DNA of 64,000 nt from an uncultured candidate division Zixibacteria bacterium (GTDB lineage Bacteria > Zixibacteria > MSB-5A5 > GN15 > FEB-12), in the NCBI GenBank assembly GCA_963735035.1, contig CAVTJJ010000006.1:96001-160000 (forward strand), read 5' to 3'. The notes below the pieces were generated by a model, which worked only from the letters and a program-made list of their open reading frames with translations, made no database searches and had not been told where the DNA came from. Position numbers and translations under genes: made by a program. The number at the start of each line of letters is the position of its first letter. Position 1 is the stretch's first letter. Positions 43,546 to 47,462 of the stretch are shown here, in pieces.

Positions 43546-44103
43546 ATGGAATTGAAACTCAGCCGCGACGTTGCGTATGAGCTAGTCCTGACCCGGATCG
43601 GTCGTAACAATCTGCTCAAGCACGTACTCTCGGTCGAGGCCGGGATGCGACAAGTGGCTGAACTCCTGCACCAGGATGTGAATTACTGGGGTCTAATCGG
43701 TCTCGTTCATGATCTCGATTACAACGAGACCAAAGATGATCCGGCGCGACACACTTATGTAACGGCAGAGCTTCTCAAGTCGTATGACCTACCTGAAGAG
43801 ATGATGTATGCCATACACGCTCATCCGGGTCACGTGCCGTGCCGCTCGGCTCTGGACTGGGCGCTCTATTCGGTCGACCCAGCCACTGGATTCGTTGTAG
43901 CCTGTGCGCTGATGCATCCAGAGAAGAAGCTGTCCGTCCTCGATGGCGAGTTCATGATGCGTCGTTTCAAAGAGAAGCGGTTCGCGGCGGGGGCGGGGCG
44001 CGACGAAATCGCCGCCTGTTTGCATCTGGGGTTGGAGCTTGAGCCGTTCCTGCTGCTGGTTCGCGATGGCATGCTTAACATCAGAGAAGAGCTGGGGTTG
44101 TGA
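43546..44103 (+). CDS. HD/HDIG-domain metal-dependent phosphohydrolase
   Basis: KH.L.VE, GL.HDLDY, AI.AH, D..TGF..ACAL, KEK.FAAG..R. Confidence 0.85.
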   Translation: MELKLSRDVAYELVLTRIGRNNLLKHVLSVEAGMRQVAELLHQDVNYWGLIGLVHDLDYNETKDDPARHTYVTAELLKSYDLPEEMMYAIHAHPGHVPCRSALDWALYSVDPATGFVVACALMHPEKKLSVLDGEFMMRRFKEKRFAAGAGRDEIAACLHLGLELEPFLLLVRDGMLNIREELGL

Positions 44104-45431
44104 CGGGATCCGCGGGAGAAAGCATCTGGCGGCGGGACGTTTTCGGGTGGTCACTCTACGACTTCGCCAATACCATCTACTCCATGAACATCGTATCGCT
44201 GTATCTCAAGCGATACATAGTCGAAGACCTCGGCTATGGCGATCATTATTTCGACATTCCCTTTGCGGCATCAATGTTTCTCGCGGCGCTGGTACTTCCG
44301 GCGTTGGGTGCACTTTCCGATCACTCAGCCAAGAAGAAGACCTTCCTATTTCTTTTCACGCTGACCTGCTGCGCATCGGTAGGTCTGATGGCTTTAGTGC
44401 CGGGCTGGGCGATATTGGGGCTGGTGGTGCTGTTCATCATAGCCAATTTCAGCTATGAAGCGGCCCTGCCGTTCTATAACGCGCTGTTGTATTCGGTGGC
44501 CGAAGGACGCCAGGCACGATTGGTATCCGGTGTCGGTGTGGCCTGGGGGTACGTGGGGTCGATCGCGGGCATGGTTCTCGTACTGCCATTTGTACTCGGG
44601 GATATCTACGGCTGGATACTGCCACTGGTCAAGGCGGGAGGAAAGACTGCCGCATTCTTGCCCAGCGCTATTCTGTTCTTCTTGTTTGCGTTGCCCTGTT
44701 TTCTCTGGGTGAAGGAGAGGCGAAGCGCCAACTCAACTCACCCCGGTATCTTCGCGGCTTACCGCGAAGTGTGGCAGGCGGTTCGTGACACGAAGAGATA
44801 CCCCGGCGTGTTGCGTTTCCTGATCGCGGATTACTTCGTTGAAGACGCTGTGGCGACCGTCATTCTGAATATCGGTCTGTATTGTTCTATCGTCCTCTCG
44901 ATGCCGGAACAACAAATCACCACTTTTCTCATAATCTCAACCGTAACAGCCGTCCTTGGGTCTTTTGCAATCGGATTCTTATCCAAGAGATGGTCCCTCA
45001 GGCGCCTGTTGAATATCGTATTCGCCGGCTGGGTTGTGGCGCTGGTGGCGTTTGTCATGACCGATCACATGGCGGCGATCTGGGTTCTGGGCTCGCTGGT
45101 CGGTGTGCTCCTGGGCGGCCTTTGGACCACCACCCGGACTTTCCTGGCCGAGTTGGTGCCGCATGAAGAACTCGGCAAATTCTTCGGACTGTTTTCTCTA
45201 TCGGGTCGAGCCGCTGCGGTCGGAGGACCACTCATCTGGACGACCACAGTTTACCTGTTTAATCCCGATAGGACCCTCGGTCGATGGATAGACCGTCTCC
45301 TCGCGCTTGACAGTGCCGCCGCCGAACGGTTACCTTACAAGCTGGGAGTACTCTCCCTGGCGGTCATGGTGTTGGTCGGTCTGGTTATCTTCCAAGGTGT
45401 TCCGCGCAACGAGGCAAACACAAATGGCTAG
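44100..45431 (+). CDS. MFS transporter (UMF1/ATG22-like)
   Basis: WSLYDFANT, P.LGALSD, FYNALL, SG.G..WGYVGS, FFGLFSLSGR. Confidence 0.85.
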   Translation: MTGSAGESIWRRDVFGWSLYDFANTIYSMNIVSLYLKRYIVEDLGYGDHYFDIPFAASMFLAALVLPALGALSDHSAKKKTFLFLFTLTCCASVGLMALVPGWAILGLVVLFIIANFSYEAALPFYNALLYSVAEGRQARLVSGVGVAWGYVGSIAGMVLVLPFVLGDIYGWILPLVKAGGKTAAFLPSAILFFLFALPCFLWVKERRSANSTHPGIFAAYREVWQAVRDTKRYPGVLRFLIADYFVEDAVATVILNIGLYCSIVLSMPEQQITTFLIISTVTAVLGSFAIGFLSKRWSLRRLLNIVFAGWVVALVAFVMTDHMAAIWVLGSLVGVLLGGLWTTTRTFLAELVPHEELGKFFGLFSLSGRAAAVGGPLIWTTTVYLFNPDRTLGRWIDRLLALDSAAAERLPYKLGVLSLAVMVLVGLVIFQGVPRNEANTNG

Positions 45432-46478
45432 TCGAGTCGGCGACCGATACCACTATTCCGGCGCCCTGCATATTCACACGACCGAGTCCGATGGCACCGC
45501 ATCTCTCAAAGAGGTTGCCGAATTCGGACGCCAGGCCGGTCTCGACTTCTTGATGTTCACTGATCACATGGGGCTCACCAACCGGACCGCCGGGCTGGAA
45601 GGTTTCTATGGCCAGACGCTGGTAGTGGTCGGCTACGAACACAACGACACCGAAGACAATAACCACTACCTGATCTTCAAGTCGCCAGCTGTTTACGCGG
45701 ACAACTATGTCCGCACGTCAGTATGTCGAAGCCGCCCATCGCGACGGCGCTTTCGGAATCATTGCTCATCCGATCGAACACCGCAGCCGCGAGGGGAAAT
45801 ACCCGCCTTATCCATGGACAGAGTGGGAGACGGACCAGTTCGACGGGCTCGAAATCTGGAACCAGATGTCGGAATGGATGGAGAAACTAACCCGCTGGAA
45901 CAAGCTGGTCATGGCTTTTTCGCCGCGCAAATCCATGGTTGGGCCGCCTCCCGAGGCTCTATCGATCTGGGACAAACTCAATACCAAGCGTCGCTATGTA
46001 GGGGTAGCGGGTGTCGATGCGCACGGTTTCAAGGTGGATGTAGGTCCGCTCAAGGTCGAAATCTTCCCGTACAAAGTGCATTTTCGCTCTCTTCGCACAC
46101 ATATCATTCTCGACGAGCCTTTGTCGGCTGACTACGACGACGGCATCCAAGCAGTTTTACAAAGCCCTCGCCGATTGCCGCGTCTTCAATTCGAACTACC
46201 GCTGGGGCGACGCTGCTCATTTCCAGTTCTACGCCAACGATGGTTCTCGAACCGCCGTATCCGGTGACACTCTCGCGTGGCGTGAAGGGATCAAGTTGAT
46301 CGCTGAGGTTCCGGCGTACGCCACGATCAAACTGATTGGCAATGGCCGTCAGGTGGCGGAAGCAAATACGGATCATTTCGAATTCCCTGTTCGCGAACCC
46401 GGACTGTATCGGCTTGAAGTTTGGAAGGGGAAGCGGGGATGGATCTTCTCCAATCACATAAGGATCGGCGTTGACTGA
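45424..46478 (+). CDS. PHP-like (CehA/McbA-type) metallohydrolase; two apparent +1 frameshifts (~45706 and ~46138)
   Basis: GALHIHTT.SDG, TDH, E...NHYL; second frame IAHP, GLEIWN, GVDAHG; third frame FYKALADCRVF...YRLEV...WIFSNHI. Confidence 0.75.
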
Positions 46479-46905
46479 CCCCGCAAAAGGGAAGAAGCCA
46501 GTCAGCGTTTTTGACCTTGGCTTTGGAAATCCCGCTTATTCTGCCGGCTTGCGCGGCGGGGGACCGGGCGATTGGAAGTTTGTCATCATAGAAGCCACAG
46601 ACGCCCGCTATCTCGTTCTCGGCCCGGTGGCCAGGTACAAGTACCATGCTGGTCTGGTGAAACGATTCTGTGAGCTTCAGGGTGTGGCCTGTCTGACGGT
46701 CAAGAAACCTGACCTTGTTGAAGTGGTCGAGCGGGGAGTAAGGATTCGCGGTGGGGGGAGAGTCAGGTTCGACAAACCGAGCGGGGTCGTTCACTTCTTT
46801 GATAGTTCCCGCGCCTATGGACAGTTTGACCGCGACGAATTGACCGAAATTCTTGGCTCGTCTGACTTCCTGGAAGGGTTATCTGTGCAAATTGACCGGG
46901 GATAA
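46471..46905 (+). CDS. Putative Janus/Ocnus-family (PHPT1-like) phosphohistidine phosphatase
   Basis: [24 protein letters not shown] match PHPT1 [24 protein letters not shown] in order and spacing (by-eye alignment); TTG start with AAGGA RBS. Confidence 0.6.
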   Translation: [144 protein letters not shown]

Positions 46906-47028: not shown

Positions 47029-47062
47029 AGGATTTGACTTTACCGCGTACAAATCCTAAAGT
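47029..47062 (+). promoter_or_regulatory. sigma70 promoter of the nuo operon with overlapping inverted repeat
   Basis: TTGACT(47034)-N17-TAAAGT(47057); AGGATTTG-N13-CAAATCCT dyad. Confidence 0.55.
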
Positions 47063-47105: not shown

Positions 47106-47462
47106 GTGTTTGAGGAGCTTTATCCGATTCTCTTTCTGCTGATTGTAGCGACCGTCCTGGCAGTCGCTTTTACAGTACTGTCTGTGCTGTTTGGTCGCCG
47201 CACCCGCCTTGGCAAGAAAAACCAGCCCTATGAATGCGGGATTGACCCGGTGGGAACCACCCGCGACCCGGTGCCGGTTAAGTACTTCATGGTAGCAATA
47301 TCTTTCATATTGTTCGATATCGAAATCGTCTTCCTGCTTCCGTGGGCGGTGGTGGCGCGCGATCTCGGTATGTTCGGATTCGGCGCCATCGCGGTGTTCG
47401 TGCTTCTCGTTCTCGTTGGCTATTTCTATGAATTAGGCAAAGGGGCCCTCAGATGGGACTAG
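47106..47462 (+). CDS. nuoA: NADH-quinone oxidoreductase subunit A
   Basis: PYECG, FILFDIE..FL.PWA, KGAL.W. Confidence 0.95.

Follow-up and report, generated by a model that had tools for sequence, protein, structure and literature searches.

A PHPT1/Janus-Ocnus family gene upstream of nuoA

We analyzed a 64,000-nucleotide (nt) stretch of DNA from an uncultured candidate division Zixibacteria bacterium, hereafter called the window (positions 96,001 to 160,000 of contig CAVTJJ010000006.1, assembly GCA_963735035.1), and in particular a small gene that lies in it just before the operon for NADH dehydrogenase (nuo). An initial annotation, made from the sequence alone, had proposed that this gene encodes a bacterial protein related to human phosphohistidine phosphatase (PHPT1) and to the Janus proteins. 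The open reading frame (ORF) is indeed found on the + strand at 46471..46905, it encodes 144 amino acids (aa) from a TTG start codon, and the peptides quoted in the initial annotation are present in it. Its start overlaps by 8 nt with the final piece (end at 46478) of a PHP-type hydrolase gene located upstream. The features of the gene used below are as follows.

46471..46905, + strand: PHPT1/Janus-Ocnus family gene, 144 aa, TTG start
46460..46464, + strand: Shine-Dalgarno-like AAGGA, 6 nt 5' of the TTG start, read directly from the sequence
46576..46578, + strand: codon of Lys36, counterpart of PHPT1 Lys21 (conservation, and a weak stretch of a HMMER alignment)
46642..46650, + strand: codons of Tyr58-His59-Ala60, proposed counterpart of PHPT1 Tyr52-His53-Ala54, which holds the catalytic His (motif, and Pfam and fold alignment ranges)
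46750..46761, + strand: codons of Gly94-Gly95-Gly96-Arg97, counterpart of PHPT1 Gly75-77 and Arg78 (ungapped HMMER alignment to 2ai6)
46807..46821, + strand: codons of Ser113-Arg-Ala115-Tyr116-Gly117, counterpart of PHPT1 Ser94-Met-Ala96-Tyr-Gly (HMMER alignment to 2ai6)

To find relatives, an exhaustive HMMER search was run against 1.84 billion cluster representatives. At E <= 0.001 it yielded 203 proteins, of which 85 also passed E <= 1e-10, and almost all had a length of 120-150 aa. An alignment of 143 relatives (A3), with a mean column identity of ~25%, served as the base for the family profile and for all conservation counts given here. The Pfam Ocnus model (PF05005), suggested as a check in the initial annotation, matched the protein above its cut-off with an E-value of 5.8e-5, with residues 33-129 aligned to positions 13-101 of the 108 in the profile. 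The orthologue in the complete genome L018 scored 27 bits against the same model, and 132 of the 143 relatives matched it at E <= 0.01, the best with an E-value of 2.2e-11. Compared with the sequences in the PDB, the 143-sequence profile retrieved the PHPT1 chains 2ai6, 2nmm and 2hw4 with E-values of 1.3e-6 to 1.7e-6, followed at a distance by a match with an E-value of 0.41. Because the family of 143 relatives matches Ocnus, and its profile finds PHPT1, we consider the homology settled.

Structure prediction, likewise proposed in the initial annotation, gave the same answer. A first AlphaFold2 model, based on 5 sequences, had a predicted local distance difference test score (pLDDT) of 81.2, and the top five Foldseek matches in the PDB were all PHPT1 (E-values of 2e-5 to 4e-4, probability 1.00), with the next match at 0.06. 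A second model, based on the 143-sequence alignment, reached a pLDDT of 90.4 and a predicted template modelling score of 0.85, all five models of this run scoring 89-90, and again the first five matches were PHPT1 chains (1.2e-5 to 6.5e-5) with a wide gap to the next one (0.074). The predicted protein has the alpha/beta fold of PHPT1. Thus, family model, profile-to-PDB search and predicted fold agree, and the bacterial protein is a true homologue of PHPT1 and Janus-Ocnus.

The TTG start, and a 155-aa ORF that overlaps the gene on the opposite strand, would fit an alternative in which the interval between the PHP gene and nuoA holds no gene but an open frame that arose by chance. Against this stand the 203 cluster representatives found at E <= 0.001, open and full-length homologues in 116 of 285 genomes (see below) and the confident fold prediction. 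Conservation clearly favors the + strand frame over the antisense ORF, and it already refutes a chance open frame, the probability of which is practically negligible. Two public DNA sequencing runs contain small shares of the sequence, and no RNA run is listed for it; one contig of 151 nt from the public data is identical, without a single difference, to positions 46549-46699 of the window.

Fused or longer forms of the protein were not found at E <= 0.001 among 1191 candidates, which is weak evidence. One protein of 3288 aa, P0048, aligned repeatedly, in 8 separate stretches, to residues 73-118 of the query (E 3.8e-14). On scanning, it lacked the KF, YHA, GGG and S-x-A-Y-G motifs discussed below, and this is probably a repeat or compositional match.

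Active-site residues compared with PHPT1

The catalytic-site set described for PHPT1 consists of Lys21, His53, Ala54, Arg78, Ser94 and Ala96, and the substrate-binding residues of Glu51, Tyr52, His53, Tyr93 and Met95 (PMC4817053). The PHPT1 numbering used here is that of the printed HMMER alignment of the profile to the PDB sequences. The initial annotation had listed counterparts of the Lys, His, Arg and Ser in the same order, and these are found as Lys36, His59, Arg97 and Ser113. In the ungapped alignment of the 143-sequence profile, G-G-G-x falls on Gly75-77 and Arg78 of PHPT1, and S-x-A-Y-G on Ser94-Met-Ala96-Tyr-Gly, whereas the family 'KF' is placed on 'K21-Y' in a separate, weak stretch (domain 1). 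The assignment of His59 to His53 is supported by the identity of the Tyr-His-Ala motif, by the location of His59 at the start of helix 59-70, the first long helix of the model, and by the ranges of the Pfam and structural alignments, from which we infer that the two residues correspond.

Conservation of these positions is high. Lys36 is Lys in 141 of the 143 relatives, Tyr58 and Ala60 are each retained in 132, and His59 is invariant (143/143). The loop Gly94-Gly96 is Gly in 142-143 of the 143 sequences, Ser113 and Gly117 are found in all of them, Tyr116 in 142 and Ala115 in 122. Position 97 is different, with Trp in 48, Arg in 23, Tyr in 22 and His in 18 relatives, and because Arg occurs in only 23 of the 143, the counterpart of Arg78, a residue implicated in PHPT1 catalysis, is not a feature of the bacterial family. 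Judged from these alignments, the protein contains the Lys21 counterpart, the His of Tyr-His-Ala, the Gly75-77 loop with Arg78, and the Ser94-x-Ala96 motif, so that most PHPT1 active-site residues are predicted to be intact.

The protein belongs to the same size class as human PHPT1 (14 kDa; PDB 2ai6, 2hw4, 2nmm; PF05005) and shares with it the Lys, Tyr-His-Ala, Gly-Gly-Gly-Arg and Ser-x-Ala-Tyr-Gly motifs, but it comes from a bacterium rather than from human, and the identity between the two is only 16-20%. The similar spacing of the active-site residues, claimed in the initial annotation, holds for Arg to Ser, which are 16 residues apart in both proteins, but not for Lys to His (23 versus 32) or His to Arg (38 versus 25). 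The Lys-His stretch is therefore 9 residues shorter than in PHPT1, and by its position this shortening would fall in loop L2 (residues 29-39), described as distant from the catalytic site of PHPT1 (PMC4817053). Between the His and the GGG loop there are 13 residues more than in PHPT1, and the model shows an extra beta-hairpin at 74-85. Other differences are an N-terminal extension of ~30 residues, and a Lys in place of PHPT1 Glu51.

The protein forms a small sub-branch with 5 close relatives (52-58% identity over the whole alignment), which differs from the wider bacterial family in that Arg97 is kept, that Asp111 replaces the common Gly, and that most of its members fall below the precomputed Pfam labelling. 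Asp111 stands two residues before the conserved Ser in this protein and in its 4 closest full-length relatives; at this position, Gly92 in PHPT1, the 143 relatives have Gly in 123 and Asp in 18 cases. Such a substitution, the variable Arg78 position, and the description of the phosphatase role of insect Janus/Ocnus as unclear (PMC4817053) would be consistent with a PHPT1-fold protein that has lost hydrolase activity and acts by binding or in regulation, as has been considered for the insect proteins. Yet 143 sequences with a mean column identity of ~25% show little or no variation in His59, Ser113, the GGG loop and Tyr116-Gly117, as would be expected if an active site is maintained, and we regard a loss of activity as improbable.

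Distribution, annotation and gene neighborhood

The phylogenetic distribution, proposed as a check in the initial annotation, was surveyed in 285 genomes sampled from the window's phylum, of which 116 have the gene. In three taxonomic families it is near-universal, with 96 of 107 genomes in the window's own family (f1), 5 of 6 in a second (f10), and 14 of 15 in a third (f20); it was not found in 17 other families of the sample, nor in any of 14 well-known control genomes. There is one match per genome in 114 cases, two matches in G128, and an interrupted copy in G147. The latter, in the same taxonomic family as the window, is divided by a TGA into two matches (G147:C13:58367-58761), and may be a pseudogene or an error. 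A search of the genome contigs with the 5-sequence alignment gave 2 loci.

Named relatives occur in metagenome-assembled genomes (MAGs) of Candidatus Zixiibacteriota, 'FCB group bacterium' and Nitrospirae, and all are annotated as 'hypothetical protein'. The relatives carry this name both at NCBI and JGI, and many have a precomputed PF05005 label. In the ESM Atlas, the nearest clusters have 343 and 114 members, of which 60% and 50% are Bacteria, with Nitrospirota as the commonest group, and the clusters are either automatically named after Janus/Ocnus or have PF05005 on about half of their members. The larger one is called 'Janus/Ocnus family domain-containing protein'. Such bacterial proteins, from Nitrospirota and Candidatus Zixiibacteriota MAGs, are of the same family, with 25-59% identity. 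Because the Pfam and atlas labels cover the relatives, the bacterial family is already detectable in databases, but it is unnamed in genome annotation, and the word 'unrecognised', used in the initial annotation, has to be withdrawn in view of these labels and of the 132 relatives that match the Pfam model. The same annotation had called the family essentially eukaryotic. This agrees with papers that treat PHPT1 as a mammalian or eukaryotic and SixA as the bacterial enzyme (PMC7948535, PMC6282199, PMC11277029), but not with the bacterial members already visible in Pfam and the ESM Atlas. No paper on bacterial PHPT1 homologues was found in the open-access literature, a search that did not cover subscription journals and supplements.

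Around the gene, the window contains the following features.

43546..44103, + strand: HD/HDIG-domain phosphohydrolase-type gene, first of a four-gene string (Pfam HD, E 2e-5; NCBIfam HDIG on the L018 orthologue)
44100..45431, + strand: MFS transporter gene (ATG22-like) of the same string (Pfam ATG22, E 8.5e-35; MFS_1, E 5.1e-30)
45412..46478, + strand: PHP-type (CehA/McbA-like) metallohydrolase gene in three frames (Pfam PHP, 23.2 bits, below cut-off)
47034..47062, + strand: promoter-like TTGACT-17-TAAAGT between the PHPT1-like gene and nuoA (consensus scan, 9 of 12 matches)
47106..47462, + strand: nuoA, first gene of the NADH dehydrogenase operon (Pfam Oxidored_q4, E 1e-32)

The order HD, MFS, PHP, PHPT1-like gene and nuoA-B-C-D is conserved in all 13 loci fetched from f1 and in two named MAG loci, and in this lineage the MFS transporter gene thus belongs to the string of the PHPT1-like gene. 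In the complete genome L018, the HD, MFS, PHP and PHPT1-like genes overlap or nearly touch. In each of the 15 relatives' loci, no more than a few tens of bases lie between the PHP stop and a candidate start codon of the PHPT1-like gene, whose own stop is followed by nuoA after 118-268 nt. The PHPT1-like gene is the last of this tight string, and its translation is probably coupled to that of the PHP gene. Downstream, the nuo operon (nuoA, then nuoB, C and D) is probably transcribed from a promoter of its own; the site at 47034-47062 is a weak candidate, since the scan of the region returned 4 sites where 2.3 were expected.

The initial annotation had noted that the gene overlaps a PHP hydrolase gene. 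The overlap of 8 nt is real, but the PHP gene itself is broken here by two frameshifts, near 45705 and within 46086-46165, as the intact orthologue from the same genus aligned by tblastn in three pieces and three frames. In all 15 relatives' loci, including that of the same-genus genome, the PHP gene is uninterrupted, with one open frame of 348-460 codons; the intact L018 orthologue scored 64 bits with NCBIfam CehA_McbA, below the cut-off of 80. The frameshifted copy is either a pseudogene or the result of assembly indels; the public contigs placed on the window span neither of the two sites. The only match to nucleoside diphosphate kinase (NDK) in this genome, a 6-contig assembly, lies outside the window (G000:C6:327111-327500) and contains an internal TGA. 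Together, the interrupted NDK and the frameshifted PHP gene hint at indel or base errors of the assembly rather than at the decay of single genes.

The position directly upstream of nuo, stressed in the initial annotation, is correct, with nuoA starting 200 nt downstream of the gene, but a functional meaning does not follow from it. Because the adjacency is kept within one family and is absent from all 7 loci of f10 and f20, which also lack the HD, MFS and PHP neighbors, it is lineage synteny, and a functional tie of the PHPT1-like gene to nuo is not supported.

In 5 of these 7 loci (L029, L030, L033, L034 and L035; 3/3 in f10 and 2/4 in f20), an EamA transporter gene adjoins the PHPT1-like gene, co-directional in 3 loci and convergent in 2. 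A third context was found in the YHADIVERF subgroup, represented by 37 metagenomic loci (L038-L114). Here the gene most often found after the PHPT1-like gene is a convergent YceG/MltG gene (19 loci), then one for an ABC1 (UbiB-like) kinase (11 loci), while upstream genes vary and nuo was not among the neighbors found. This YceG/ABC1 neighborhood seems to reflect lineage synteny, and a functional link is not evident. In one locus (L058:1577-3819, - strand), the region directly upstream of the PHPT1-like gene contains an IS200-type transposase gene and a TnpB/Cas12f-like one. No neighbor was found to be shared between lineages, the three contexts being HD-MFS-PHP/nuo, EamA, and convergent YceG with ABC1.

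These neighborhoods bear on the possibility that fold and chemistry are those of PHPT1 but that the substrate is a small molecule, in which case the protein would hydrolyze a metabolite with a P-N or other labile phospho bond, and would act with the HD and PHP proteins and the transporter in salvage or detoxification. The tight packing of the gene with those for the HDIG protein, the MFS transporter and the CehA/McbA-like PHP protein in all 15 lineage loci speaks for it, as do the EamA transporter in two other families and the activity of PHPT1 on phospholysine in vitro (PMC6429109). On the other hand, the HD, MFS and PHP genes are absent from all 7 f10 and f20 loci, EamA is convergent in 2 of its 5 cases, and in the metagenomic subgroup the neighbors differ and are mostly convergent (YceG in 19 of 37 loci). 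Moreover, no known pathway joins the HD, MFS and PHP families, and in this genome the PHP gene is frameshifted but the PHPT1-like gene intact. We therefore consider a small-molecule substrate rather unlikely, and protein phosphohistidine the more likely one.

A probable phosphohistidine phosphatase, and its relation to SixA

Family membership, fold and residue conservation are shown by the present analysis, whereas catalysis, pocket geometry and substrate are deduced from them. On this basis, the gene would encode a small cytoplasmic enzyme of the PHPT1 family, most likely a hydrolase of P-N (phosphoramidate) bonds that acts on phosphohistidine in the first place, by the mechanism of PHPT1. 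Based on the comparison of sequences and predicted structures, we assign this reading a probability of roughly 60%. In the putative pocket, the Ser113 hydroxyl, together with the main-chain amides of His59, Ala60 and Ala115, would hold the phosphoryl group. The substrate or the transition state may be anchored by Lys36 and, in the present case, by Arg97, with His59 as the putative residue essential for catalysis.

In bacteria, two-component signalling, the phosphotransferase system and several metabolic enzymes depend on histidine phosphorylation. Candidate substrates in this genome would be HPr, NDK, and histidine kinases or a protein of the Hpt/CheA type. HisKA was matched 30 times in the genome (completeness 96.9%), in 29 cases above the cut-off, and there is one copy each of HPr and NDK, and a single Hpt protein, of 686 aa. 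PHPT1 has been reported to dephosphorylate the bacterial protein CheA in vitro (PMC11277029). Because it also removes phosphate from phospholysine in vitro (PMC6429109), the fold is not strictly specific for protein phosphohistidine.

Several observations weigh against the assignment as a PHPT1-type phosphatase. The Pfam score of the protein is marginal, as it exceeds the cut-off by 0.6 bits (23.6 versus 23), and PHPT1 was missed among the PDB sequences both by phmmer with the single protein and by hmmsearch with a 5-sequence profile. The pairing of His59 with His53 is printed by no aligner, the spacing on its two sides differs from that in PHPT1 by -9 and +13 residues, and the HMMER alignment of a subgroup profile (A4) spans only residues 56-111 of PHPT1 and thus starts past the His. 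The Arg78 counterpart is Arg here and in close kin, but in few of the other relatives. The gene neighbors vary between lineages and name no substrate, SixA occurs together with the PHPT1-like gene in many genomes, and for insect Janus/Ocnus, which share the family, the phosphatase role has been called unclear (PMC4817053). Finally, activity data were found for no bacterial member in the open-access literature.

SixA (TIGR00249) is the known bacterial enzyme with the same proposed activity, the removal of phosphate from phosphohistidine on signalling and phosphotransfer proteins. It belongs to the histidine phosphatase superfamily and works through a phospho-enzyme intermediate (PMC6282199, PMC7948535). 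As stated in the initial annotation, it differs in fold, and in family and fold it is unrelated to the protein described here, which matched no NCBIfam model at E <= 10, the SixA model included. According to a 2020 paper, targets in vivo had been put forward for only four phosphohistidine phosphatases, SixA of E. coli and three mammalian enzymes (PMC7948535). A conserved bacterial PHPT1 homologue in which most active-site residues are predicted to be intact is a cheap and directly testable candidate for a second bacterial phosphohistidine phosphatase, a simple system for the chemistry and specificity of PHPT1, and a handle on the origin of the eukaryotic enzyme. Its value is tempered by the fact that Pfam already sees the bacterial family, that the organism is known from metagenome assemblies only, and that the genomic context points to no substrate. 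More speculatively, the PHPT1 type might represent a second class of bacterial phosphohistidine erasers, vertically inherited in Zixibacteria- and Nitrospirota-like lineages, which would be the main eraser on signalling or phosphotransfer proteins in genomes such as this one, where ~30 histidine kinases, HPr and NDK occur without SixA, and from which eukaryotic PHPT1 and Janus would have descended, but we hold this wider scenario to be doubtful.

In the window's genome, at its 96.9% completeness, no SixA match was found at E <= 0.001. A possible complementarity between SixA and the PHPT1-like gene showed no clear pattern and was used neither way, and since the two genes co-occur, there is no displacement pattern that would back a shared role. 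Counted from the result rows, SixA was over the cut-off in 25 of the 96 f1 genomes with the PHPT1-like gene, versus 4 of the 11 without it, and in families that lack the PHPT1-like gene, the proportion of genomes with SixA at E <= 0.001 ranged from 0 of 9 to 12 of 14.

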